From assembly GCF_042755905.1 (NCBI RefSeq), contig NZ_JBHZDG010000025.1, forward strand, positions 1,176-25,175: a stretch of DNA of 24,000 bases, in the 5' to 3' direction. The notes beneath the pieces are model-generated. The model was not told the DNA's origin. It saw nothing but the letters and a program-made list of their open reading frames with translations, and did no database searches. Source of the DNA: Streptomyces sp. NPDC059134 (GTDB lineage Bacteria; Actinomycetota; Actinomycetes; Streptomycetales; Streptomycetaceae). This document shows, piece by piece, positions 3,243 through 20,531 of this stretch (the stretch's first letter is position 1; each line of letters begins with the position of its first letter). The translations under genes were made by a program, and so were the position numbers.

Positions 3243-4454
3243 ATGGAAATCGTCATCCTTGTTGTAGTCATCGCCCTGGTCGCGGTCGGCGCGATCAGCG
3301 GGCTCGTGGTCAGCAGCCGCAAGAAGAAGCTGCCGCCCTCGTCACCGTCGAGCACGCCGACCATCACAGCCCCACCCGCCGAACCGCACGTCGGTGACGA
3401 GGCGGAGACACCGCGCGACGAACCGCGCCGCACGATCGAGGAGGTCGGGCTCCCCGACGCCACCGCCGGTGCGCCGGTCGTCGTCGAGGAGCCCGTCGAG
3501 GCCGCCGAGGCGCCCGCCATCGAGGTGCCCGAGCCGTCCGCCGGCCGGCTGGTCCGGCTGCGCGCGCGGCTCGCCCGCTCGCAGAACTCCCTCGGCAAGG
3601 GCCTGCTCACCCTGCTCTCCCGCGAACACCTGGACGAGGAGACCTGGGAGGAGATCGAGGAGACCCTGCTCACCGCCGATGTCGGTGTCGCGCCGACCCA
3701 GGAGCTGGTCGAGCGGCTGCGCGAACGCGTCCGGGTGCTGGGCACCCGCACCCCGGCGGAGCTGCGCACCCTCCTGAGGGAGGAGCTGCTGGTCCTCCTC
3801 GACCCCGATGTCGACCGGGCGGTCAAGACGGAGAGCGGGCTGGACACGCCCGGCGTCGTCATGGTCGTCGGCGTCAACGGCACCGGCAAGACCACGACCA
3901 CCGGCAAGCTGGCGCGGGTGCTCGTCGCGGACGGCCGGTCGGTCGTCCTCGGCGCGGCGGACACCTTCCGCGCCGCCGCCGCCGACCAGCTCCAGACCTG
4001 GGGCGAGCGCGTCGGCGCGCGCACCGTACGGGGCCCGGAGGGCGGCGACCCGGCGTCGATCGCCTTCGACGCGGTCAAGGAGGGCATCGCGGAGGGCGCG
4101 GACGTCGTCCTCATCGACACGGCGGGGCGGCTGCACACCAAGACCGGACTGATGGACGAGCTGGGCAAGGTCAAGCGGGTCGTGGAGAAGCACGGCCCGC
4201 TCGATGAGGTGCTGCTCGTCCTGGACGCGACGACCGGACAGAACGGCCTCGTCCAGGCGCGGGTCTTCGCGGAGGTCGTCGAGATCACGGGGATCGTGCT
4301 GACCAAACTGGACGGTACGGCCAAGGGCGGCATCGTGATCGCGGTCCAGCGGGAGCTGGGCGTACCGGTGAAGCTGGTGGGTCTGGGCGAGGGTCCGGAC
4401 GACCTGGCGCCGTTCGAGCCCGCCGCGTTCGTCGACGCGCTGATCGGGGACTGA
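3243..4454 (+). CDS. ftsY: Signal recognition particle receptor FtsY
   Basis: The C-terminal NG domain carries SRP-GTPase motifs: GVNGTGKTTTTGKLA (G1), DTAGRL (G3), TKLDGTAKGG (G4). I prefer ATG 3243 (GGGAG 4 nt upstream), which gives an N-terminal hydrophobic anchor MEIVILVVVIALVAVGAISGLVV. The ORF track's alternative GTG at 3222 has no RBS. Confidence 0.95.
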   Translation: MEIVILVVVIALVAVGAISGLVVSSRKKKLPPSSPSSTPTITAPPAEPHVGDEAETPRDEPRRTIEEVGLPDATAGAPVVVEEPVEAAEAPAIEVPEPSAGRLVRLRARLARSQNSLGKGLLTLLSREHLDEETWEEIEETLLTADVGVAPTQELVERLRERVRVLGTRTPAELRTLLREELLVLLDPDVDRAVKTESGLDTPGVVMVVGVNGTGKTTTTGKLARVLVADGRSVVLGAADTFRAAAADQLQTWGERVGARTVRGPEGGDPASIAFDAVKEGIAEGADVVLIDTAGRLHTKTGLMDELGKVKRVVEKHGPLDEVLLVLDATTGQNGLVQARVFAEVVEITGIVLTKLDGTAKGGIVIAVQRELGVPVKLVGLGEGPDDLAPFEPAAFVDALIGD

Positions 4455-7571: not shown

Positions 7572-9199
<1,628 letters not shown>

Positions 9200-9215
9200 A
9201 GACGGGAACGACTGG

Positions 9216-11738
9216 GTGACGAGCGTCGAAGAGACCACCGAAAAGGCAGACTCGGGACCCAGCGGTTATGCGGCGGCCCGGCTGCGCCTCCTCCAGGAGA
9301 AGGCGCGGCCAGGGCCGCCGCGCCGTACCGCGCTGGCCCGTCTCACCGACGACTGGCTGAACGCGCTGTTCACCACCGCCGCCCAGGAGACCGGGGTACG
9401 CGGCGCGGCCCTGGTCGCCGTCGGCGGCTACGGACGGGGCGAACTCTCCCCGCGCAGCGATCTCGACCTCGTGCTCCTGCACGACGGCAAGACGCCCGCG
9501 AAGGCGATCGCCGCCCTCGCCGACCGCGTCTGGTACCCCGTCTGGGACCTCGGCCTCGCCCTCGACCACTCCGTACGCACCCCCGCGGAGGCGCGCAGAA
9601 CCGCCGCCGAGGACCTCAAGGCGCAGCTCGGCCTGCTCGACGCCCGGCACGTTGCCGGAGACCTCGGCCTCGTCACCGGCGTACGCACCGCGATCCTCGC
9701 CGACTGGCGCAACACCGCCCCCAAGCGCCTGCCCGAACTGGACGAACTGTGCCGGGAACGGGCCGAGCGCCAGGGCGAACTGCAGTTCCTCCTGGAACCC
9801 GACCTCAAGGAGGCCAGGGGCGGACTGCGCGACGCCACCGCGCTGCGCGCCGTCGCCGCCTCCTGGCTCGCCGACGCGCCCCGCGAGGGTCTCGGCGACG
9901 CCCGTCGCAAGCTGCTCGACGCCCGCGACGCCCTGCATCTGGCCACCGGACGCGCCACCGACCGGCTCGCCCTCCAGGAACAGGACGCCGTCGCCGCCGA
10001 ACTCGGCCTGCTCGACGCCGACGCCCTGCTCCGCCAGGTGTACGAGGCCGCGCGCACCGTCTCGTACGCCTCCGACGTCACCTGGCGCGAGGTCAACCGC
10101 GTCCTGCGCTCCCGCTCCGTGCGGCCCCGGCTGCGCGCCATGCTGGGCGGCAGGCCCGCCCCGGACCGCACCCCGCTCGCCGAGGGCGTCGTCGAGCAGG
10201 ACGGCGAGGTCGTCCTCGCACGCACCGCCCGGCCCGAACGCGACCCGGTGCTGCCGCTGCGGGCCGCGGCCGCCGCCGCCCAGGCCGGGCTGCCCATCTC
10301 CCTGCACGCCGTACGCCGCCTCGCCCAGGCGGCGAAACCCCTGCCGGTTCCGTGGCCCGCCGAGGCCCGCGAGGAGCTGGTCACCCTGCTCGGGGCGGGC
10401 GAGTCGACCATTCCGGTCTGGGAGGCCCTCGAAGCCGAAGGGCTGATCAGTCAGCTCCTGCCCGACTGGGAGCGGGTACGGTGCCGGCCCCAGCGCAACC
10501 CCGTCCACACCTGGACCGTCGACCGCCACCTGGTCGAGGCCGCCGTCCAGGCGTCCTCGCTCACCCGCCGCGTCGGCCGCCCCGACCTGCTGCTCGTCTG
10601 CGCCCTCCTGCACGACATCGGCAAGGGCTGGCCCGGTGACCACTCCGTGGCCGGCGAGGTCATCGCCCGCGATGTCGCCGCCCGCATCGGCTTCGACCGC
10701 GAGGACGTCGCCGTCGTCGCCGCCGTCGTACGCCACCACCTGCTGCTCGTCGACACCGCCACCCGCCGTGACCTGGACGACCCGGCGACCGTCAGCTCCG
10801 TCGCCACCCGCGTCGGCTCGCTCGCCACCCTGGAACTCCTGCACGCCCTCACCGAGGCCGACGCGCTCGCCACCGGCCCCGCGGCCTGGTCCTCCTGGCG
10901 TTCCTCCCTCGTCACCGACCTGGTCACGCGCGTCGCCGCCGTGCTCGCCGGTGACGACCCGGCGGAGCCCGAGCCCTCCGCGCCCAGCGCCGAACAGGAA
11001 CGGCTCGCCGTCGAGGCGCTGCGCACCGGCGGTCCCGTACTGGCCCTGCACGCGCAGACCGAGGCCCCCCGCCCGGGGGGCGCGCAGGACGAGCAGGAGG
11101 ACGGGGCGCCGGAACCGGTCGGTGTCGAACTGCTCATCGCCCTGCCCGACCAGCCCGGCGTGCTGCCCGCGGCGGCCGGGGTGCTCGCCCTGCACCGGCT
11201 CACCGTGCGCGCCGCCGACCTGCGCGCCGTCGAACTGCCGGGCGAGCTGGCCGCCCGGCAGTTCGAGCCGGACGGCGGACCGGGGGCGGGGGCGGCGCCG
11301 GCCGGGACCACCGGCGTCCTGCTGCTGAGCTGGCGCGTCGCCGCCGCGTACGGCTCGCTTCCGCAGGCGGCCAGGCTCCGCGCCGACCTCGTACGGGCCC
11401 TGGACGGCTCCCTGGACATCCCGGCCCGGCTCGCCGAGCGCGAGGCCGCCTACCCCCGCCGCCGCGGCGTCACGGCCCCGCCGCCGCGTGTGACGGTGGC
11501 GCCGACGGCCTCCCGGCACGCCACGGTCATCGAGGTACGCGCACAGGACGCCCCAGGCCTGCTGCACCGCATCGGCCGCGCCCTGGAGGACGCGCGGGTG
11601 ATGGTGCGCAGCGCCCATGTGTCGACCCTGGGCGCCAACGCCGTCGACGCCTTCTACGTCACCTCCGACCGTGGACGCCCGTTGACGGCGGAGGCCGCCA
11701 CGGAGCTGGCCCGCGCGGTGGAGACCGCCCTGCGCTGA
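9216..11738 (+). CDS. glnD: PII uridylyl/adenylyl-transferase GlnD
   Basis: I chose GTG 9216, just after the glnK stop, giving 840 aa. The ORF-track start at 9120 overlaps glnK. Nucleotidyltransferase motif GGYGRGELSPRSDLDL, HD domain LLHDIGKG, and two C-terminal ACT-like segments. Confidence 0.93.
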   Translation: MTSVEETTEKADSGPSGYAAARLRLLQEKARPGPPRRTALARLTDDWLNALFTTAAQETGVRGAALVAVGGYGRGELSPRSDLDLVLLHDGKTPAKAIAALADRVWYPVWDLGLALDHSVRTPAEARRTAAEDLKAQLGLLDARHVAGDLGLVTGVRTAILADWRNTAPKRLPELDELCRERAERQGELQFLLEPDLKEARGGLRDATALRAVAASWLADAPREGLGDARRKLLDARDALHLATGRATDRLALQEQDAVAAELGLLDADALLRQVYEAARTVSYASDVTWREVNRVLRSRSVRPRLRAMLGGRPAPDRTPLAEGVVEQDGEVVLARTARPERDPVLPLRAAAAAAQAGLPISLHAVRRLAQAAKPLPVPWPAEAREELVTLLGAGESTIPVWEALEAEGLISQLLPDWERVRCRPQRNPVHTWTVDRHLVEAAVQASSLTRRVGRPDLLLVCALLHDIGKGWPGDHSVAGEVIARDVAARIGFDREDVAVVAAVVRHHLLLVDTATRRDLDDPATVSSVATRVGSLATLELLHALTEADALATGPAAWSSWRSSLVTDLVTRVAAVLAGDDPAEPEPSAPSAEQERLAVEALRTGGPVLALHAQTEAPRPGGAQDEQEDGAPEPVGVELLIALPDQPGVLPAAAGVLALHRLTVRAADLRAVELPGELAARQFEPDGGPGAGAAPAGTTGVLLLSWRVAAAYGSLPQAARLRADLVRALDGSLDIPARLAEREAAYPRRRGVTAPPPRVTVAPTASRHATVIEVRAQDAPGLLHRIGRALEDARVMVRSAHVSTLGANAVDAFYVTSDRGRPLTAEAATELARAVETALR

Positions 11739-11996
11739 GCCCGGCCGGGGCGTGCGCAACGGGGCCGGCCCCGGCACCTGGACCGGGCCGGGCCGGGGCG
11801 CGTGGGCGCTGCCGGGGCGACGGTTCCGGTTCCCGGACGCGCCCCGGCCGTACAGGGCGCGCACGGCTCCCGGACGGCCGTGCCACCCACGGGGCAGACC
11901 CCACCGCGCGCGGCCGGATACCCTGGGGGATGGTCTGTCCTTCACCGCGCGGGACAGCCCCCTCATCCGCTCCCGACCTGAGGATCCGCGACCGCC

Positions 11997-13553
11997 GTGT
12001 TCGATACTCTCTCCGACCGCCTCGCAGCCACATTCAAGAGCCTCCGGGGCAAAGGGCGCCTCAGCCCGGAGGACATCGACGCCACGGCCCGCGAGATCCG
12101 TATCGCCCTGCTCGAAGCCGATGTGGCGCTGCCCGTCGTCCGCGCCTTCATCGCCAAGGTCAAGGAGCGCGCGGCCGGCGCGGAGGTCTCCCAGGCGCTG
12201 AACCCCGCCCAGCAGGTCGTCAAGATCGTCAACGAGGAACTGGTCGGCATCCTCGGCGGTGAGACCCGCGTCCTGCGCTTCGCGAAGCAGCCGCCGACCG
12301 TGATCATGCTGGCGGGTCTCCAGGGCGCCGGTAAGACCACCCTGGCCGGAAAGCTCGGCCTCTGGCTCAAGGGCCAGGGGCACACGCCGCTGCTCGTCGC
12401 CTGTGACCTCCAGCGCCCCAACGCCGTCACCCAGCTCTCCGTCGTCGCCGACCGCGCCGGCGTCGCGGTGTACGCGCCGGAGCCGGGCAACGGGGTCGGT
12501 GACCCGGTCAAGGTCGCCAAGGACTCGATCGAGCACGCGAAGACCAAGCAGCACGACGTCGTGATCGTCGACACCGCGGGCCGCCTCGGCATCGACGAGG
12601 AGCTGATGAAGCAGGCCGCGGACATCCGCGACGCCGTCAGCCCCGACGAGGTCCTCTTCGTCGTCGACGCGATGATCGGCCAGGACGCCGTCAACACCGC
12701 GGAGGCATTCCGCGACGGTGTCGGCTTCGACGGCGTGGTGCTCTCCAAGCTCGACGGTGACGCCCGGGGTGGTGCGGCCCTCTCCATCGCGCATGTCACC
12801 GGCAAGCAGATCATGTTCGCCTCCAACGGCGAGAAGCTCGACGAGTTCGACGCGTTCCACCCGGACCGCATGGCGTCCCGCATCCTCGACATGGGTGACC
12901 TGCTCACCCTCATCGAGCAGGCGGAGAAGACGTTCAGCCAGGCCGAGGCCGAGAAGATGGCCTCCAAGCTGGCGAGCAGCAAGGGCGGGAAGGACTTCAC
13001 GCTCGACGACTTCCTGGCCCAGATGGAGCAGGTCAGGAAGATGGGCTCCATCTCCAAGCTGCTCGGCATGCTGCCCGGCATGGGGCAGATCAAGGACCAG
13101 ATCAACAACATCGACGAGAAGGACGTGGACCGCACCGCCGCGATCATCAAGTCGATGACCCCGGCCGAGCGCCAGGACCCGGTCATCATCAACGGCTCGC
13201 GCCGCGCCCGTATCGCCCGGGGTTCCGGTGTCGAGGTCAGCGCCGTGAAGAACCTCGTGGAGCGGTTCTTCGACGCGCGCAAGATGATGTCGAAGATGGC
13301 GCAGGGCGGCGGAATGCCGGGTATGCCGGGCGTCCCGGGGATGGGCGGCGGCCCCGGCCGTACGAAGAAGAAGACCAAGCAGGCCAAGGGCAAGCAGCGC
13401 TCCGGCAACCCGATGAAGCGCAAGGCCGAGGAGCAGGCGGCACTGGCGCGGCGCGAGGAGGCGGCGCAGTCGGGCAACGCGTTCGGACTGCCCGCCGGCG
13501 GCCAGGACAAGAACTTCGAACTGCCCGACGAGTTCAAGAAGTTCATGGGCTGA
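11997..13553 (+). CDS. ffh: Signal recognition particle protein Ffh
   Basis: 518 aa starting MFDTLSDRLAATFKSLRGKGRLS. GTPase motifs GLQGAGKTTLAGKL, DTAGRL and SKLDGDARGG. Methionine-rich M domain followed by a basic tail. Confidence 0.97.
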   Translation: MFDTLSDRLAATFKSLRGKGRLSPEDIDATAREIRIALLEADVALPVVRAFIAKVKERAAGAEVSQALNPAQQVVKIVNEELVGILGGETRVLRFAKQPPTVIMLAGLQGAGKTTLAGKLGLWLKGQGHTPLLVACDLQRPNAVTQLSVVADRAGVAVYAPEPGNGVGDPVKVAKDSIEHAKTKQHDVVIVDTAGRLGIDEELMKQAADIRDAVSPDEVLFVVDAMIGQDAVNTAEAFRDGVGFDGVVLSKLDGDARGGAALSIAHVTGKQIMFASNGEKLDEFDAFHPDRMASRILDMGDLLTLIEQAEKTFSQAEAEKMASKLASSKGGKDFTLDDFLAQMEQVRKMGSISKLLGMLPGMGQIKDQINNIDEKDVDRTAAIIKSMTPAERQDPVIINGSRRARIARGSGVEVSAVKNLVERFFDARKMMSKMAQGGGMPGMPGVPGMGGGPGRTKKKTKQAKGKQRSGNPMKRKAEEQAALARREEAAQSGNAFGLPAGGQDKNFELPDEFKKFMG

Positions 13554-13568
13554 CCGCATCCGCACGGA

Positions 13569-13608
13569 GGGCGGTGGCGCCACGACAGCGGTCCGCGCAC
13601 CACCGCCC
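13569..13608. terminator. Imperfect GC hairpin between convergent ffh and the yhfX-like gene
   Basis: GGGCGGTGG (13569-13577) is complementary to CCACCGCCC (13600-13608), with additional inner GCGC pairing. It sits in a 77-bp convergent gap. There is no clear U-tract. Confidence 0.4.
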
Positions 13609-13630
13609 GATCCGTCGACGACGGTCCTGT

Positions 13631-14812
13631 TCATGAGGCGGCCCCTTCGAGGGCCCGGCCCCGCGCGTCGTACAGCCCCGCCAGCCGGGGCTTTCCGGTG
13701 GAAAGACCGGTGACGACGGCGACGGTCGAGCGGGTGACGAAGATCTGCGTACGGAACGCCAGGACGGCGGTGTCCCCGGCCGCGACCCCGCCGGGTCCCC
13801 TGGTGGGCGGCTCCAGCAGGCGGTAGTAGTCGATGTTCTCCGCAGGGGCGTCGCACACCCGAAGGCGCTGTCCCGTACGGGGCAACAGGGCGGCGCGGAC
13901 CCCGGACCGGGCGTAGAACCCGCCGCCGAAGAGCGCGGGCCGGCCGTCCGCGAGCGTGTGGGCGACCTCGGTGACATACACATAGGCGGGCCGCTCCGGT
14001 TGGTGCGGATCCACGGCGTGCAGCGGCGTGGTGCCGGTGAGGGAGTGTCCCGGCTCGCCGTGCGTGGCGCCCACCCCGGCCAGCAGCGGCAACGCCGTCA
14101 CGGACGTCGCGCCCGGGGCGCTGAGGCCCAGCCCCCGATGGCCACGCGCGGCCAGCAGCTCCCGCGCCCTGCGGGCCAGTTCGAAGGTGGCCGTCGGGGC
14201 CGGCAGGCCCGTATCCGGGGCGCACACCACACAGGGGAACGCCGTCACCCCGGCGACCCTGACCGACGGCAGTCCCTCGACCTCGGCGGCGAAACCGTCC
14301 AGCGCGTCCAGCGGCACACCGCCCTCCTGCCCCGGATGGCCGGAGCCCGCCGCGGACTCGATCCGTACGAACACGTCCTGGACGACGCCGAGCCCGCCTG
14401 CCGCGTCCGAGACGGCCCGCGCGTTGGCGAGATCGAAGACCGTGACCGCCTCGGGGCGCCGGGCCAGCATCTCGGGCAGGGCACGGCGCGGGATCTGCAC
14501 GAGATGACCGAGGTTGCCCGCCCGGGCCCCGGCGGCGTACAGAGTCCGCGCCTCGGACAGGTCGATCGCGGCGAACCGGGGAATGTGGCGGGCGACCGCC
14601 CGGATCAGCGCGGGGTTGCGGCCCAACTGCTTGACCACGAACCAGAGCGAGAGCCCCAGCCGTCCCGCCTCGGCCGCGAGCAGCGCCGCGTTGGCCTCCA
14701 CGGCGTCCGCGTCCACGACATAGGTGTCCGGCGGAACGGCGCCCGAGACATGCAGCGCGGTCGCCGTCTCGACGAGCGCGGGGTTACGGGTGAGCACGGT
14801 GTCCAGGAACAC
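13631..14812 (-). CDS. YhfX-like fold-type III PLP enzyme (alanine-racemase N-terminal-domain family)
   Basis: GTG 14812 lies 2 nt after the upstream gene's stop (TGACCGTG) and gives 393 aa. FVVKQLGRNPAL resembles the PLP-lysine motif of alanine-racemase-like barrels. Size and neighbours match E. coli YhfX (from memory). Confidence 0.75.
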   Translation of the reverse strand: MFLDTVLTRNPALVETATALHVSGAVPPDTYVVDADAVEANAALLAAEAGRLGLSLWFVVKQLGRNPALIRAVARHIPRFAAIDLSEARTLYAAGARAGNLGHLVQIPRRALPEMLARRPEAVTVFDLANARAVSDAAGGLGVVQDVFVRIESAAGSGHPGQEGGVPLDALDGFAAEVEGLPSVRVAGVTAFPCVVCAPDTGLPAPTATFELARRARELLAARGHRGLGLSAPGATSVTALPLLAGVGATHGEPGHSLTGTTPLHAVDPHQPERPAYVYVTEVAHTLADGRPALFGGGFYARSGVRAALLPRTGQRLRVCDAPAENIDYYRLLEPPTRGPGGVAAGDTAVLAFRTQIFVTRSTVAVVTGLSTGKPRLAGLYDARGRALEGAAS

Positions 14813-14814
14813 GG

Positions 14815-15918
14815 TCAGCCCTTCAGGTCGCGCAGCGAACGGCGGAGGATGTCGATCACGAGGTCCGCGCCCGCCCGCATGGGGTTGATCCGTACGGTCC
14901 AGTCGGCGAGCCGAGGAGCGTCGTCGAGCGAGGACGCCGACATCCGGTGGACGAGCGGGGCGATCTCGTAGCGGGAGTTGGAACCCACCGGGTACGGCGC
15001 GGCGCCGTACCGCGCGGCGACGGCGGGCAGGTGGCGGGCGACGGGCCGGTCGAGCCGTACCAGCAGACAGCGGTCCTGTGCGTTGGCGATCCGGACCTCC
15101 GCGACCCCCGGTACCTCGCCGGCGGTCAAGCGTCCGGCGACCTCGGCGGACACCCGGGACTGGAGCGCCCACAGCACGGGCACATGGGTGAGCGCGCGCA
15201 ACGCCTCCAGCGCCTGGACTCCCTGGACCTGGCCGCCGCCCGAGTAGTTGTCGGTGCGGACGCGTCCGACCAGATCACGGGCGCCGACGACCGCGCCCAC
15301 CCCCTCGGGGCCGTGCAGCTTGAAGAGGGAGAAGCAGGAGACGTCGGCGCCGAGCTGGACGCCGCAGGCAGGCACGCGCAGCACCGTGTAGTTGTCGTCG
15401 ACGACCGTGCGCACCCCCGCCGCACGGCAGACCGCAAGTACCTCGCCCGGATCGTAGGAGTCCCCGAGCCGCTGCCTGCTGTGCTGGACGTACGCCCAGG
15501 CGAGATCGGTCGACGCCAGGGCCTCGCGGAGCGCCTTGCGGTCGTTGAAGTCGGCCTCGGTGGTGCGGACGCCGAGGCCCCGCAGGGTGACGGCGGTCGT
15601 CCGGTAGACCGGCGCCCGGTGGATCAGCAGTGGATCACCGGGAGAGAGGGCCGCCTGGAGCGCGGCCCGGATCGCGCCCGTACCGGCGCCCTGCACCAGC
15701 GCGGCGTCCTCGGCGCCGAACCAGTCGGCGAGCACGGCCTCGACGCGCGCCGTCGTACGGGGCCGGCCCAGCCCGGTGACCACACCGGCGTCCGCCTCGA
15801 AGAGCTGAGGGCCCTCGAAGTGCGCGGCGGTGTGCTCCAGCAGACTGAACTGGAGCTGGACGGCGTCCTCCAGCGCGATCGTGGGCAGCGGGAAGGTCCG
15901 GGGAAGAGGTGGAGGCAT
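14815..15918 (-). CDS. YhfS-like fold-type I PLP-dependent enzyme
   Basis: ATG 15918 lies 1 nt after the php-like stop (TGAGATG) and gives 367 aa. The blocks ALVQGAGTGAIRA, SCFSLFKLHGPEGVGAVVG (candidate PLP Lys), YSGGGQVQG and RINPMRAG closely parallel my recollection of E. coli YhfS. Confidence 0.8.
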   Translation of the reverse strand: MPPPLPRTFPLPTIALEDAVQLQFSLLEHTAAHFEGPQLFEADAGVVTGLGRPRTTARVEAVLADWFGAEDAALVQGAGTGAIRAALQAALSPGDPLLIHRAPVYRTTAVTLRGLGVRTTEADFNDRKALREALASTDLAWAYVQHSRQRLGDSYDPGEVLAVCRAAGVRTVVDDNYTVLRVPACGVQLGADVSCFSLFKLHGPEGVGAVVGARDLVGRVRTDNYSGGGQVQGVQALEALRALTHVPVLWALQSRVSAEVAGRLTAGEVPGVAEVRIANAQDRCLLVRLDRPVARHLPAVAARYGAAPYPVGSNSRYEIAPLVHRMSASSLDDAPRLADWTVRINPMRAGADLVIDILRRSLRDLKG

Positions 15919-15919
15919 C

Positions 15920-16984
15920 TCAGAACTCCTCGGCGTCGGTGCCCGCGGTCCGGGCGGTGTCGGTGGTACGGCGTGTGTCGGTGTCCTGACGTGTGCCGGG
16001 GGCACGGCGTGTGCCGGTGCCCGTATCGGCGCCGGTCAGGAAGCGCAGCGGGTTGCGGCGGGTCAGCAGATCGATCAGGTCGTCGTCCACGCCCGCCGCG
16101 CGCGCCGCCGGAACGAAGGAGCGGAAGAGATGCCCGTACCCGTGACCGCCCTCCGCCGTCAGATAGCCATGGCGGGAGATGTCGCAGCTCAGCAGGGCCC
16201 GCTCGGCGTACCCCGCGTCCAGCAGGGCCAGCAGCAGCCGCAGACGGGTGCGGTCGCTCTGGTAGCGCTCCTTGCCGATGGTGTCGAACGCGACGTACGC
16301 GCCGCTCGCCGCGATCTCCTGGTGGATCCCCGGATCGTCCAGCAGGTCCTGATGGCCGATCGAGATCCGGTGCGGTGGCAGCCCCGCACCGGTGAGCAGC
16401 TCCAGTTGGGCGAGCCCGCCGTAGCCGAACTGGGCATGGGTGGCGAGGGACAGACCTGTGGCGCGCGCGGCATGGGCCGAGGCGAGCAGCGCACGGCTCT
16501 CGCGTCCGCTCGGCCGGTCGCCGTGGCTGCCGATCTCACCGAGCACACCAGGTCTGACCCCGCTCGCGCCGATGCCGTCCTCGATCTCCCGCACCAGGAT
16601 CTCCGTGAGCCGCTCGACGCTCGCCTCCTCGGTCTCCCGGGGGTGGAACGGCTCGTAGTACCAGCCGGTGGCGGCGACCACCGCGACGCCTGACTCCTCG
16701 GCGATCCGCGCCAGGGCGCGCGGGGCACGGCCCATGCCCCGGCAGGTCAGCTCGATGACCAGGGCGAGCCCGAACTCGGCCGACAACGCGGCCAGTTCGC
16801 CGACCACGGCCGACCGGTGGCGTCCGGCCTCCAGGACGGCGGCGCGCTCACCCGTACGGTCGAGATCGAGCACCAGGTGCTCATGGGTGAGCACCGGGCC
16901 GCGCACGGCGGAGACGGGCAGGGGGCCGGCGACCGTGGTGATCCACGGGCTGGTGGAGGACGAAGCGGGAAGCGGGGAGTGCAT
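15920..16984 (-). CDS. php: Phosphotriesterase homology protein (Php/YhfV-like, amidohydrolase superfamily)
   Basis: ATG 16984 gives 354 aa. Metal-ligand motifs: LTHEHL (HxH), GVLGEIG, THAQ, SIGHQDL, AYVAFDTIGK, LLSCDISR. Carries an extra 38-aa T/D/R/G-rich C-terminal tail. Confidence 0.88.
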   Translation of the reverse strand: MHSPLPASSSTSPWITTVAGPLPVSAVRGPVLTHEHLVLDLDRTGERAAVLEAGRHRSAVVGELAALSAEFGLALVIELTCRGMGRAPRALARIAEESGVAVVAATGWYYEPFHPRETEEASVERLTEILVREIEDGIGASGVRPGVLGEIGSHGDRPSGRESRALLASAHAARATGLSLATHAQFGYGGLAQLELLTGAGLPPHRISIGHQDLLDDPGIHQEIAASGAYVAFDTIGKERYQSDRTRLRLLLALLDAGYAERALLSCDISRHGYLTAEGGHGYGHLFRSFVPAARAAGVDDDLIDLLTRRNPLRFLTGADTGTGTRRAPGTRQDTDTRRTTDTARTAGTDAEEF

Positions 16985-17039
16985 GGGTACCGATGCCTTC
17001 CTGACGGGTCCGTCCGCGCCGGGACGCCGGGTGCCGGTG

Positions 17040-18401
17040 TCAGCTCGTCGGCGGGGTGAACAGGTCGAGCCAGTGGAGAAGGTTGAGCAGGACACCGCCG
17101 GCGACGACCGCGGCGGGCGCCGCCGCCATCCGCACCACCGGTCTGCCCATCGCCTCGTTGAGGAGATAGAGCCCGCCGACGACGAGGATCGCCAGACCGC
17201 CGCCCATCACATGCGCCGCGAGCAGGGAGCCGAAGAGAATCGCCAGCCCCAGCGTCTCCGTGATCGCGGCGCGCAGATGCTCGGAGGAGTCACGCACGCT
17301 CGGGAGTGCGCCGAGAACCCTCCCGAGCGAGGAGAGCGCCAGCACTTCGAGCGCGAGCACCACGGCTCCGGCGCCCGCCGCGAGGAGCGGGTGCGGCAGC
17401 AGATAGCCGAGGGGGTAGACGAGCGTGAACCCGGCGATGCCGTACGCACCGGAGGCGAGCGCGGTCGTCGCGATCAGCGGGACGAAGCCGAACACCCGGT
17501 AGAAGTCGACCTGGGCGGCCTCGCTGTACTGCCCCTTGGCGATCAGGAAGCTGGTCGCCTCTCCGCCGCCGAATATGTGCATCTGTGCCAGGACACAGAC
17601 TCCGGCGCCCAGCACCATGAAGAGCGGCAGATGACGGCGCAGCCGCAGGGCGCTGTCACCGAACAGCGAGGCCATCGGATCGTCCGCGACACCCTCCCGC
17701 TTCTGCCCCTGTTCCGGCCCTTGGGCCCGCTGTTCCCGGGCCCGCTCCTGCTTCCTCCCGAGCAGGTCCTTGCGCACGGCGAACGCGATGAGGAGCAGTA
17801 CCCCCGCCGCCATCGCGAGCGAACCGGCGAAGATCTTCGGCCAGAGCTTCATCGTCATGACGACCAGGGCCAGTTCCAGCACGGCCGCCAGAGCGCCGCG
17901 CGGTCGTCCGAACTGCCGGGCGATGGCGAGCACCGGAAAGAGCGTGAAGAGGAAGAGAATCGGCGTCGACATCTGCTGCAACGCGGTCAGGAAGTCGACG
18001 GGCAGATCGTGCGCCAGGTCGTTGGCGGCGCCGAGGCCGAAGACGACCACCGCGCCCCAGGCGCCGCCCAGCAGCGGCGCTATCCACTTCCTGGGCGACA
18101 GGAGGCCCAGGATGTCGGTGGGGAGAAAGAGAAGCCAGGGATTGAGGACGCCGCTGGCGAGGGCCATGGGCGCGCCGAGTCCGAAGATGAAGCCCGCCGA
18201 GAGCCCGAAGGACACGGCAGTCGTGCCGGAGCGCCTGGCGCGCCCCTGGATGAAGTCGAGCATGAAGGGGCGTACGCCGTCGTTGAAGACGGCCAGCGCC
18301 AAGTGCGAGACGAAGGCGGTCAGCGCGCAGAGACTTACGACGAACAGCTTCTGCGTCAGTGAGAGGTCCAGACGGGTACTGGCTGCGAGGACGGTCTGCA
18401 C
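17040..18401 (-). CDS. YhfT-like polytopic membrane protein (putative transporter)
   Basis: GTG 18401 lies 8 nt after GAGGAG and gives 453 aa. Highly hydrophobic multi-TM protein with a central charged loop (RKDLLGRKQERAREQRAQGPEQGQKRE). Its position after the DUF2620 gene matches the E. coli yhfU-yhfT pairing. Confidence 0.7.
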   Translation of the reverse strand: MQTVLAASTRLDLSLTQKLFVVSLCALTAFVSHLALAVFNDGVRPFMLDFIQGRARRSGTTAVSFGLSAGFIFGLGAPMALASGVLNPWLLFLPTDILGLLSPRKWIAPLLGGAWGAVVVFGLGAANDLAHDLPVDFLTALQQMSTPILFLFTLFPVLAIARQFGRPRGALAAVLELALVVMTMKLWPKIFAGSLAMAAGVLLLIAFAVRKDLLGRKQERAREQRAQGPEQGQKREGVADDPMASLFGDSALRLRRHLPLFMVLGAGVCVLAQMHIFGGGEATSFLIAKGQYSEAAQVDFYRVFGFVPLIATTALASGAYGIAGFTLVYPLGYLLPHPLLAAGAGAVVLALEVLALSSLGRVLGALPSVRDSSEHLRAAITETLGLAILFGSLLAAHVMGGGLAILVVGGLYLLNEAMGRPVVRMAAAPAAVVAGGVLLNLLHWLDLFTPPTS

Positions 18402-18438
18402 AGGGAGGTCTCCTCTGCGGTCCGGCAGGCGGCCGGGG

Positions 18439-18795
18439 TCAGCCGCGCGCCGCGAGAGCGCGGGCCATGAGTGGGGCGAGCACATCGATCTGGTCGATCG
18501 CGAAGCCGAAGACCTTCTTGCCGTCGGCCACCAGCGCGGCCACCTGTTCGTCCGTCGGCACGGAGCGGCCGAAGGTGTGGCAGAGGGGACTGCCCAGCAA
18601 TCCGACGAGGATGCCGAGCGAGGCGCCGGCACCGGTGTGACAGGTGCCCAGGTAGTAGTCGGCCTGGCCGTTCCGGAGTTTCATCGCGGCGTCCATGTCG
18701 TTGGAGACCGAGATCTCCAGACCTTCGAGGCCGAGCCGCGTGACGGTGTCCGCGACCTCGGTCTTGCCGACGCCACCGGTGAGGATCTTCGTCAT
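18439..18795 (-). CDS. YhfU-like small protein (DUF2620 family)
   Basis: 118 aa. NDMDAAMKLRNGQADYYLGTCHTGAGASLG matches my recollection of the conserved YhfU core. The start overlaps the PRD gene stop (ATGA at 18792-18795). Confidence 0.7.
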   Translation of the reverse strand: MTKILTGGVGKTEVADTVTRLGLEGLEISVSNDMDAAMKLRNGQADYYLGTCHTGAGASLGILVGLLGSPLCHTFGRSVPTDEQVAALVADGKKVFGFAIDQIDVLAPLMARALAARG

Positions 18796-19199
18796 GACTG
18801 ACTCCTTCGCTCTGATACGTGGTGCGGGGCAGGGGAGTTCCGCGCCAGCACGGCGAGGTGCAGGCCCAGGAAGTTGACTTCGGAGCCGGGTAACGGTGCG
18901 CCGAGCGCCTCCTCGGCCCGTAACGCCACGGCATGCGCCCGGGCGAGTGCCTCGGGGTGTCCCGTCAGCTCGGCTGTGACCTGGCCGTCCGTGGGCGAGG
19001 TCTCGATGGATTCACCGTTCAGCAGCCGGGTGAGCGCCGCCATCAGATGGCTGGTGAGCAGCCCTGCCGTGTCCTCCGTGACGGTGAGACCCTCGGCGCC
19101 GAGAGCCTCCAGCTCCGCCGCGACAAACGCGGCAACCTCGGGACGGGCCTGCCCGGTCTCGCGGAAAAGCTGGATGCGGAGGGTGAGTTGGTTGTCCAT
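18792..19199 (-). CDS. Stand-alone PRD-domain protein (YhfY-like)
   Basis: 135 aa. ATG 19199 lies 5 nt after AAGGAG. All-helical sequence with two His residues (H51 in TSHLMAAL, H114 in LGLHLAVL) about 63 residues apart, as in PRD modules. Contains two in-frame TTA codons. Confidence 0.65.
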   Translation of the reverse strand: MDNQLTLRIQLFRETGQARPEVAAFVAAELEALGAEGLTVTEDTAGLLTSHLMAALTRLLNGESIETSPTDGQVTAELTGHPEALARAHAVALRAEEALGAPLPGSEVNFLGLHLAVLARNSPAPHHVSERRSQS

Positions 19200-19244
19200 G
19201 AAGCTCCTTTCTACGGATCACGTGAGCGGATGAACGAGATAAAT

Positions 19245-19268
19245 CAGTAACCAGGATTTTGTATTTTG
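19245..19268 (-). promoter_or_regulatory. Candidate operator site B, upstream of the PRD-led operon
   Basis: The plus-strand sequence CAGTAACCAGGATTTTGTATTTTG matches site A (20277-20300) at 19 of 24 positions. It lies in an AT-rich patch centred about 57 nt upstream of ATG 19199. Confidence 0.55.
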
Positions 19269-19329
19269 AGCTCCGCCGGTCCCGTCGCCGGTGGGATCGA
19301 GGTGTGTGGGGGTGCGGGCTGGGTGAGGG

Positions 19330-20268
19330 TCAGTACGAGGGTGTGCGCTCGCCGCGCAGTACTTCGGCCTGGAGCGCGGTGACGACCGACAGGTCGAGGA
19401 ACTCGCGGACCGCGCCGAGCGCCTTTGCCCCCTCGGATCTCCCGATGATCGCCGCGCTGGAGTTGCGCCGCGAGAGGTCGCGGGTGACCTCGTCGCCGAG
19501 CGGCAGGACGTCGACGTCCGTTCCGAGCAGGTTCTGGGCCTCGTCCAGGTTCCAGACCGTGGCGTCGGCCCGGTCCTGCTCGAAGGCCGCACGCAGTTCC
19601 GTCTGCGAGGTCTCGACCCACTCGATGTCGTCCCGCGCGGCGAAGGTGCGCTCCGCGAGTATGCGCTGGTCCTCCGAATTGTGGTCGACGGCGACGCGCA
19701 GCCCCGGGCCCTCCAGATCCGAGCCGTGGCGCAGCAGTATCCCGTGCGCCCCGACATAAGTGATCGGGCCGAGATCCGCGACGAGTTCGACCGGGTACTC
19801 CTCGATCAGTCGGTCGGCCGAGGAGCGGGAGAGCACCACGAGATCGACCTTGCCTTCGAGCAGGGTGGTGGTGCGGGCGTCCGCGCCCTGCATGAAGGTG
19901 ATCGCGAAGGGGGCTCCGGCCTCCTCGAAGGCGGAGCGCAGTCCGGTGGCCAGTCCCTCGTGGCGTCGGGAGTAGGGGAGCGGCATGGCGGCCAGCAGGG
20001 TGCCGAGCCCGGAGAGCCGCCAGAGTATCGAGCGGTCGGCGCGGACCAGGAACGTGCCGAGATGGCCCCGCGCCGTCGTCTCGATGGCTCCGGCGCTCTC
20101 CAGGAGATGGAGTGCGGCCTGCACCGTGCCGTTTCCGACGCCCAGTTCCACGGCGAAGTCGCGGACGCGGGGCAGCCGGGTGTCCGGCTCGTGGTTCAGC
20201 AGGAGTACTGCGAGCTGCCGGGCCGCGAGGCCGTTGCGGGTCAGGAAACGCTCGTCGAAGTCTGTCAC
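19330..20268 (-). CDS. YhfZ-like transcriptional regulator (GntR-like winged HTH plus periplasmic-binding-protein-like sensor domain)
   Basis: GTG 20268 gives 312 aa. N-terminal RLPRVRDFAVELGVGNGTVQAALHLLESAGAIETTARGHLGTFL is a GntR-type wHTH. The rest resembles a two-lobe binding-protein fold. The 582-aa ORF-track extension overlaps the methyltransferase gene and is rejected. Confidence 0.7.
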   Translation of the reverse strand: MTDFDERFLTRNGLAARQLAVLLLNHEPDTRLPRVRDFAVELGVGNGTVQAALHLLESAGAIETTARGHLGTFLVRADRSILWRLSGLGTLLAAMPLPYSRRHEGLATGLRSAFEEAGAPFAITFMQGADARTTTLLEGKVDLVVLSRSSADRLIEEYPVELVADLGPITYVGAHGILLRHGSDLEGPGLRVAVDHNSEDQRILAERTFAARDDIEWVETSQTELRAAFEQDRADATVWNLDEAQNLLGTDVDVLPLGDEVTRDLSRRNSSAAIIGRSEGAKALGAVREFLDLSVVTALQAEVLRGERTPSY

Positions 20269-20275
20269 GCAAATG

Positions 20276-20304
20276 ACAGTAAACAGGATTCTGGATACTG
20301 GCAA
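20276..20304 (-). promoter_or_regulatory. Putative sigma70-type promoter for a leaderless yhfZ-like transcript
   Basis: On the minus strand: TTGCCA (20304..20299), a 17-nt spacer, then TACTGT (20281..20276), then 7 nt to GTG 20268. There is no SD upstream of the GTG. The promoter overlaps operator site A. Confidence 0.45.
20277..20300 (-). promoter_or_regulatory. Candidate operator site A (24-bp imperfect palindrome) over the yhfZ-like promoter
   Basis: The plus-strand sequence CAGTAAACAGGATTCTGGATACTG is self-complementary at 18 of 24 positions (CAGTAnnCAGnAT / ATnCTGnnTACTG). Confidence 0.55.
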
Positions 20305-20531
20305 TGCCCCCTCGGCACCTTGGCGTCCATACGCCATTTCACCGCCCGGGACCTGTGGTCGAGACCGGTGGTCGTCCGCCTCGCGCAGGCGCGCGGCGAC
20401 GCCACGCCCGCCCCGTCGCGACCGGACCCGACCCGACCCGCCACCGATCCGGCCCCGGTCCGGCCTCGCCCCGGTCCGGCTCGACCTGATCGGCCCCGCC
20501 CCGAGTCGCCAACGCCACGCGTTCGTCGCCG

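Follow-up and report, generated by a model that had tools for sequence, protein, structure and literature searches.

In a 24,000-nt stretch of the genome of Streptomyces sp. NPDC059134 (assembly GCF_042755905.1, contig NZ_JBHZDG010000025.1, positions 1,176 to 25,175), referred to here as the window, a gene for a YhfZ-like regulator precedes an operon of the order yhfY-yhfU-yhfT-php-yhfS-yhfX. Two related 24-bp pseudo-palindromes are present in this cluster: site A upstream of the regulator gene and site B upstream of the operon. Comparative evidence makes it very likely that both are operators of the YhfZ-family regulator. Autoregulation combined with control of the operon by this protein had already been proposed in an initial annotation of the window. 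The proposal is supported by conserved footprints, by the co-occurrence of motif and regulator, by the uniqueness of the motif in the genome and by its fixed distance to the start codon.

The two sites and their distribution

Site A (20277..20300, minus strand) is predicted to be the YhfZ operator at the promoter of the regulator gene itself. In gene direction, its halves read CAGTATCCAGAA and TCCTGTTTACTG; the plus-strand letters are CAGTAAACAGGATTCTGGATACTG. Site B (19245..19268, minus strand), predicted as the YhfZ operator upstream of the operon, comprises CAAAATACAAAA and TCCTGGTTACTG in gene direction and CAGTAACCAGGATTTTGTATTTTG on the plus strand. The two sites share 19 of their 24 positions, and 18 of the 24 in site A are self-complementary. 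In site B, the asymmetry is pronounced, with a near-consensus half on the promoter-proximal side and a degenerate distal half. Across the orthologous loci described below, the symmetry of site B is only partial and averages 6.7 of 12 pairs. From the centre to the start codon, the distance is 20.5 nt for site A (GTG of the regulator gene) and 57.5 nt for site B (ATG of the following gene, at 19199). Within the cluster (13631-20320), 30-nt segments with a GC content of at most 40% are found only at 19228-19275 and 20261-20305. The initial annotation had given the letters and coordinates of both 24-mers, their degree of identity, the self-complementarity of site A, distances of about 20 and 57 nt from the start codons and a location in the only strongly AT-rich patches of the cluster. 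Direct reading of the sequence, a recount, the measured distances and the GC profile agree with it on every one of these points.

A degenerate pattern spanning both sites has two matches in the window at up to three mismatches, compared to none in 100 shuffles. In the whole genome (8.48 Mb, 72% GC), nothing apart from sites A and B lies within five mismatches of either 24-mer. The same result was obtained with a position weight matrix (PWM) built from the sites of other species only, with the window's own sites excluded: at a possible maximum of 50.1 bits, site A scores 47.8 and site B 48.4 bits, and the highest-scoring unrelated position in the genome reaches 13.9 bits. Because of their dyad symmetry, the sites also score on the opposite strand (31.5 bits for site A, 20.3 bits for site B). 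The motif has two copies, both in the cluster; therefore, it is no dispersed repeat, and the predicted regulon is the cluster alone. The same 24-mer at many unrelated intergenic sites, which the initial annotation had named as the mark of a generic repeat, was looked for and not encountered: each genome holds two copies, invariably in the cluster.

Conservation was analysed in 47 Streptomyces loci, which came from a search for related loci (six Streptomyces loci) and from a search of 401 Streptomyces species genomes. A YhfZ ortholog with 68-100% identity is encoded in 43 of these 401 genomes, and two further genomes hold only a 30% paralog. Phylogenetic footprinting upstream of the orthologous clusters, which had been suggested as a check, found site A at all 47 loci as well as in six genomes of another genus, and site B at 42 of the 47. 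The gap between the 24-mer of site A and the start codon, which is GTG or ATG, is nearly constant: 8 nt in 38 loci, 7 nt in six, 9 nt in one and 10 nt in two. The mean frequency of the most common base is 0.93 within the 24-mer of site A versus 0.43 in the 24 nt further upstream; for site B, the corresponding values are 0.90 inside and 0.49 in the flank. Site B was detected at 38 of the 43 loci in which the next gene had been located and additionally in G048, G040, G370 and G027. The gene directly following it is always the PRD (yhfY-like) gene. The site B motif was not found at five of the 47 loci (L042, L043, L046, L047 and L048). Three of them (L042, L043, L048) have a short intergenic region of 68-75 nt in front of the PRD gene, the other two (L046, L047) a long one of 254-279 nt. 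In all five, the operon probably rides on the site A promoter.

In the 401 genomes, co-occurrence of motif and regulator was assessed with the pattern ATMCARRATYCTGKTTAYTG at no more than one mismatch. It matches in 42 of the 43 genomes with a YhfZ ortholog versus none of the 358 genomes without one (Fisher's exact p = 2.6e-56). The site of the single genome that was missed, G348, has three mismatches. S. coelicolor and S. lividans have neither the cluster nor the motif. All matches adjoin the regulator gene or fall within its cluster, and the reversed pattern, used as control in the same genomes, yields one match. A generic repeat or mobile element is ruled out by the two copies in the genome and by the lack of any copy in the 358 Streptomyces genomes without the regulator. 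Uniqueness and sequence likewise rule out a site for a global regulator such as the dre box of DasR.

Outside Streptomyces, a class-level search revealed a second actinomycete genus with six genomes (e.g. GCA_004349105.1), whose regulator is 39% identical. Its operon is complete and comprises the eight genes yhfZ-yhfY-yhfU-yhfT-php-yhfS-yhfX-yhfW, including one for a yhfW-like mutase. Here, TTCTGGCCAATATCCAGAATTCTGGATAGTATcccgccATG precedes the ATG of the regulator gene, and the segment consisting of TATCCAGAA and TTCTGGATA is a perfect 18-bp palindrome (TATCCAGAATTCTGGATA; loci L052-L057, e.g. L056 about 1440-1485, and L061 8950-9000). After it, a -10-like TAGTAT is located 7-9 nt upstream of the ATG. 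No site B was seen between regulator and operon in this genus. In a third genus, a near-perfect palindrome of 24 bp, CAATAATCAGAAATCTGATTATTG, lies immediately downstream of a gene for a 32%-identical YhfZ-like protein (L058 2490-2515). Its halves read CAATAATCAGAA and ATCTGATTATTG; it is symmetric at 22 of 24 positions and present as a single copy in that locus. The surrounding region contains no recognisable yhf operon and has a noticeably lower GC content; this palindrome is treated as anecdotal. Taken across these genera, the universally conserved symmetric core is the inner 18-20 bp, ATATCCA-GAATYC-TGGWTAY.

Regulator, promoters and competing explanations

The yhfZ-like regulator gene (19330..20268, minus strand) starts with GTG and encodes a protein of 312 aa that combines a GntR-type winged helix with an effector domain of the periplasmic-binding-protein type. 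Pfam matches were obtained for YhfZ_C (1.2e-56; 192 bits at a cut-off of 35), HTH_41 (7.7e-13; 48 versus 25 bits) and GntR (1.1e-6; 28.6 versus 27 bits, residues 27-65). The NCBIfam equivalog model NF041241 (YhfZ_full) matches residues 6-312 with 325.9 bits at a cut-off of 260, and places the protein in the YhfZ family. It is the only YhfZ_C protein of the genome. In the AlphaFold2 model, which has a mean predicted local distance difference test score (pLDDT) of 85.3, residues 11-77 form a winged helix in front of a two-lobed α/β domain. The N-terminal domain is composed of helices 11-23, 35-42 and 46-58 and a β-hairpin (62-66 and 72-77) with a pLDDT around 90. Both the Pfam GntR score and this model agree with the initial annotation, which had noted palindromic operators of this size as typical of GntR-type winged-helix dimers. 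Foldseek hits for the α/β domain are 2OZZ (the C-terminal domain of Shigella YhfZ), TauA, SsuA and MetQ as well as full-length LysR-type regulators, the latter with large root mean square deviation. The regulator contains no FCD, UTRA or aminotransferase domain and does not fall into the classical FadR, HutC, MocR or YtrA subfamilies. YhfZ is a separate subfamily of the GntR superfamily.

Site A apparently covers a promoter. A -35-like hexamer, TTGCCA (20299..20304, minus strand), extends into the first two bases of site A, and a -10-like hexamer, TACTGT (20276..20281, minus strand), is located 17 nt after it and 7 nt before the GTG. At the -35-like position, 34 of the 47 orthologous loci carry TTG(T/C/G)CA; at the -10-like position, TACTGT is found in 42 and TATTGT in four of the 47. 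The outer CA and TG of site A coincide with the -35-like TTGnCA and the -10-like TACTGT, so that operator and core promoter would overlap. As TACTGT ends 7 nt upstream of the GTG and no Shine-Dalgarno sequence is present in the 8 nt (tcatttgc) between site A and the GTG, this geometry, which is preserved in 44 of the 47 loci, makes a leaderless or near-leaderless regulator mRNA quite probable. At site B, a -10-like TAYTGT is present in 27 of 38 species, and in many of them it is followed after 7 nt by AGGAGG. This pattern fits a second promoter with its -10 region inside the operator, and in the window the 5' untranslated region (UTR) would then comprise about 45 nt.

From these data, simple repression at both sites appears likely. 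Site A would cover the core promoter of the regulator gene (TTGCCA, 17-nt spacer, TACTGT), whose transcript would start at the GTG or 1 nt before it and yield a leaderless mRNA. Site B would cover the -10 region of the second promoter in front of yhfY-yhfU-yhfT-php-yhfS-yhfX. A ligand-free YhfZ dimer bound to each palindrome would block RNA polymerase and bring about autorepression and repression of the operon, and a small-molecule ligand in the C-terminal domain would free YhfZ from the DNA. We infer YhfZ as the binding protein, the identity of the promoters, the repressive sign and the role of the ligand.

Several points weigh against this reading. Neither site was called as a promoter in a generic sigma-70 scan, as TACTGT and TATAAT agree at just three of six positions; the promoter assignment rests on the TAnnnT rule for Streptomyces, the spacing and the conservation. 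A -35-like hexamer could not be recognised at site B in any of the 38 species, and the -10-like hexamer there reads TACTGA, not TAYTGT, in the window. The distal half-site of site B in the window is poor (7 of 12), so the dimer may bind there weakly or differently. Positions 6 and 19 of the 24-mer are consistently non-symmetric (T/T), and conservation of the outer positions could partly stem from promoter elements alone. The only solved YhfZ structure comprises neither the DNA-binding domain nor DNA. In the literature, YhfZ is called only a 'putative transcription factor', and no binding, footprint, chromatin immunoprecipitation or expression data were found for any YhfZ.

The overlap with promoter-like hexamers raises the question if the conserved blocks are core promoter elements only, used by a housekeeping or alternative sigma factor without a dedicated regulator. 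Site A indeed keeps TTGnCA and TACTGT at 17-nt spacing, site B keeps TAYTGT, and the start codon or Shine-Dalgarno sequence follows at a fixed distance. However, the 17-nt spacer (TATCCAGAATCCTGT) is conserved as much as the hexamers or more, which promoters do not need, and site B keeps the spacer-equivalent sequence although it lacks a -35 box. Neither the dyad symmetry, evident from the 31.5 bits scored by the reverse strand and from the perfect 18-bp palindrome of the second genus, nor the confinement of the motif to the cluster is expected for a sigma factor motif, which should recur at many promoters. This explanation is therefore highly improbable. Only slightly less remote is the idea that another protein binds the sites, either a complex in which the yhfY-like PRD protein takes part or a regulator whose gene lies elsewhere. 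For the PRD and DUF2620 genes, the association with the motif is equally strict, and comparative data cannot separate them from YhfZ, but their products lack a DNA-binding domain. YhfZ is the sole helix-turn-helix (HTH) protein of the cluster in Streptomyces, the second genus and E. coli. Furthermore, the uniqueness of the motif in each genome excludes a global regulator, and a palindrome also adjoins the gene of the 32%-identical relative, around which no yhf operon is recognisable.

More weight, albeit still little, is given to an alternative that concerns only the sign of regulation: YhfZ might bind both sites and repress its own promoter but activate, or act dually, at site B. LysR-type proteins typically repress their own genes and activate a neighbouring operon, and the regulator has a LysR-like sensor fold. 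In addition, a promoter without -35-like hexamer in all 38 species could need recruitment of RNA polymerase. On the other hand, the -35 consensus is missing from many Streptomyces promoters. Site B overlaps the -10-like hexamer itself and not a position upstream of -35, and an operator over the -10 region normally acts by occlusion. Moreover, in the five Streptomyces loci and the second genus that lack site B, the operon would depend on the site A promoter with an operator spanning -35 to -10. Activation at site B is, hence, considered unlikely. A role of the palindromes in RNA, as hairpin, attenuator or target of a PRD antiterminator, has almost no probability left. PRD antiterminators bind RNA hairpins, and a PRD-domain protein is encoded directly downstream, but this protein has no CAT RNA-binding domain. 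Folding compared to shuffles is not significant (z = +1.09 for site B, z = -1.5 for site A), pair 3/22 occurs as GC in 24, AC in 18 and AT in three cases and reveals no compensatory covariation, and no terminator-like structure was found. Site A would also lie upstream of the predicted transcription start. The RNA-level candidate was rejected on the folding, covariation and terminator results.

Genes and sequence features of the cluster

All cluster genes are located on the minus strand, and E. coli K-12 and the second actinomycete genus have the same gene set. The first operon gene (18792..19199, minus strand) encodes a PRD-like stand-alone protein (yhfY-like) of 135 aa with a weak Pfam PRD match (E 0.004); its G370 orthologue matches PRD with 4.5e-5. 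It is followed by a gene for a 118 aa DUF2620 protein (yhfU-like; 18439..18795, minus strand; Pfam DUF2620 3.6e-41) and one for a yhfT-like membrane protein. For the latter, the longest open reading frame (ORF) extends over 17040..18632 (minus strand); the Pfam YhfT match (5.4e-148) begins at residue 96, and the true start is probably near 18440. Similarly, the php-like gene for a hydrolase of the phosphotriesterase family (longest ORF 15920..17095, minus strand; Pfam PTE 2.4e-59) probably starts further downstream. The last two genes encode a yhfS-like pyridoxal phosphate (PLP)-dependent enzyme (longest ORF 14815..16005, minus strand; Pfam YhfS-like_C 3e-41 and Aminotran_5) and a yhfX-like PLP protein of the alanine racemase fold (longest ORF 13631..15172, minus strand; Pfam YhfX-like_C 3.8e-23 and Ala_racemase_N 4.9e-15). 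Unlike in E. coli and the second genus, a gene for a yhfW-like mutase was not recognised in the window. Downstream of yhfX, a 1715-codon open frame at 9078-14225 (minus strand) overlaps several long ORFs; the region pieces 11963-13603, 10451-11419 and 9428-10411 have no Pfam match.

The spacer between regulator gene and operon displays lineage-specific features. Two Streptomyces species, G370 (L062 5967-7346) and G027, carry an additional yhfT paralog that separates the regulator gene from site B and is apparently co-transcribed with the regulator gene; therefore, these genomes have two YhfT transporters. In S. triticagri (L004/L042), where site B is lacking, the spacer after the regulator stop codon (L004 about 3940-4005) holds about three tandem units of 19-20 nt, (A/C)CCCGC(G/A)GACGTACCGAA. 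Downstream of site B and upstream of the Shine-Dalgarno sequence, the 5' UTR of L008 and L010 contains three to four tandem copies of a unit of about 20 nt, CGAGGAATCGCCCCC. In the window, the 5' UTR of the PRD gene contains CGTGATCCGTAG(G/A)AAGGAG at 19205-19230 (minus strand). This motif is common to the closest relatives L001, L002 and L006, duplicated in L006 and not present in more distant species, whose UTR comprises only about 20 nt.

Comparison with E. coli and known regulator families

The window protein and YhfZ of E. coli K-12 share 34% identity. Three perfect ATnTTCA-N6-TGAAnAT sites are present in the E. coli cluster (L060 8009-8028, 9351-9370 and 9375-9394; NC_000913.3 around 3511008-3512393), two in tandem before yhfZ and one before yhfX; the chance expectation for sites in this cluster at up to two mismatches is 0.52. 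When the arms are aligned from the dyad centre, actinomycete (A/G)TATCCA and E. coli ATnTTCA have five of six specified positions in common, and the main difference is one symmetric base, TCCA versus TTCA. The putative recognition helix reads G(N/K/A)GTVQxAL in all actinomycete proteins (GNGTVQAAL in the Streptomyces regulator) compared to SVGLTQAAL in E. coli. It does not vary wherever a core of the CCA/TCA type is preserved. Within Streptomyces, both recognition helix and operator are essentially invariant. A shared operator architecture of E. coli and actinomycetes is suggestive only, because few independent positions are available. A wider proposal would join two ideas: the YhfZ family might use one 7-6-7 operator architecture from Proteobacteria to Actinobacteria, with the specificity switched from TTCA to TCCA together with the helix change from SVGLTQAAL to GNGTVQAAL, and in Streptomyces it might form a two-protein switch with the stand-alone PRD protein. 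In this combination, the proposal is speculative and rather doubtful. If the two-protein switch were true, operator occupancy would answer both a ligand and a phosphorylation signal, and this would be a phosphotransferase system-style module of a kind not described in actinomycetes.

The predicted operators provide a first handle on the control of the yhfZ-yhfS/php cluster in Streptomyces. This cluster is conserved from E. coli to Streptomyces. A defined operator could serve ligand screening by electrophoretic mobility shift assay, which might lead to the inducer and from there to the pathway substrate, and could be used in reporter fusions. With a 24-bp site and no off-target copy in 8.5 Mb, YhfZ and its operator might also suit synthetic biology in Streptomyces as a compact, orthogonal pair of repressor and operator. 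Furthermore, the comparison across phyla would supply a case from nature in which a single base alters the specificity of a winged-helix operator.

Compared to the E. coli yhfZ-yhfS cluster, the Streptomyces system has the YhfZ family, the gene cluster and 7-bp arms with a 6-bp spacer in common, as well as one site directly upstream of yhfZ and one inside the cluster. In contrast to the E. coli sites, the N6 spacer itself is conserved (GAATYC) in actinomycetes. The placement differs, too: the tandem pair before yhfZ and the site before yhfX in E. coli are replaced by one site before yhfZ and one before yhfY in Streptomyces, where the regulator mRNA is probably leaderless.

With local repressors of the GntR superfamily (FadR, HutC/DasR/NagR, PdhR and AraR types), YhfZ shares an N-terminal GntR winged helix and a C-terminal ligand-sensing domain, a dyad operator of about 20-24 bp on the core promoter and the predicted autoregulation combined with control of an adjacent catabolic-looking operon. 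In contrast to them, its effector domain has the type-II periplasmic-binding-protein (PBP-II) fold and resembles TauA, SsuA, MetQ and LysR effector domains. The operator ATATCCA-N6-TGGATAT, here predicted from sequence, differs from dre and from the FadR box. LysR-type regulators also combine a winged helix with a PBP-II effector domain, and full-length OxyR, TsaR and DarR are among the fold matches. Negative autoregulation from a site at the own promoter together with control of the adjacent operon, predicted for YhfZ, is known from them as well. Unlike LysR-type proteins, YhfZ has no long linker helix, and its HTH is of the GntR type. In addition, its gene is co-oriented with the operon instead of divergent, and a single dyad takes the place of a T-N11-A recognition site paired with an activation site. 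Conceptually, the system is a standard autoregulated local repressor; the operator itself is new and not yet published.

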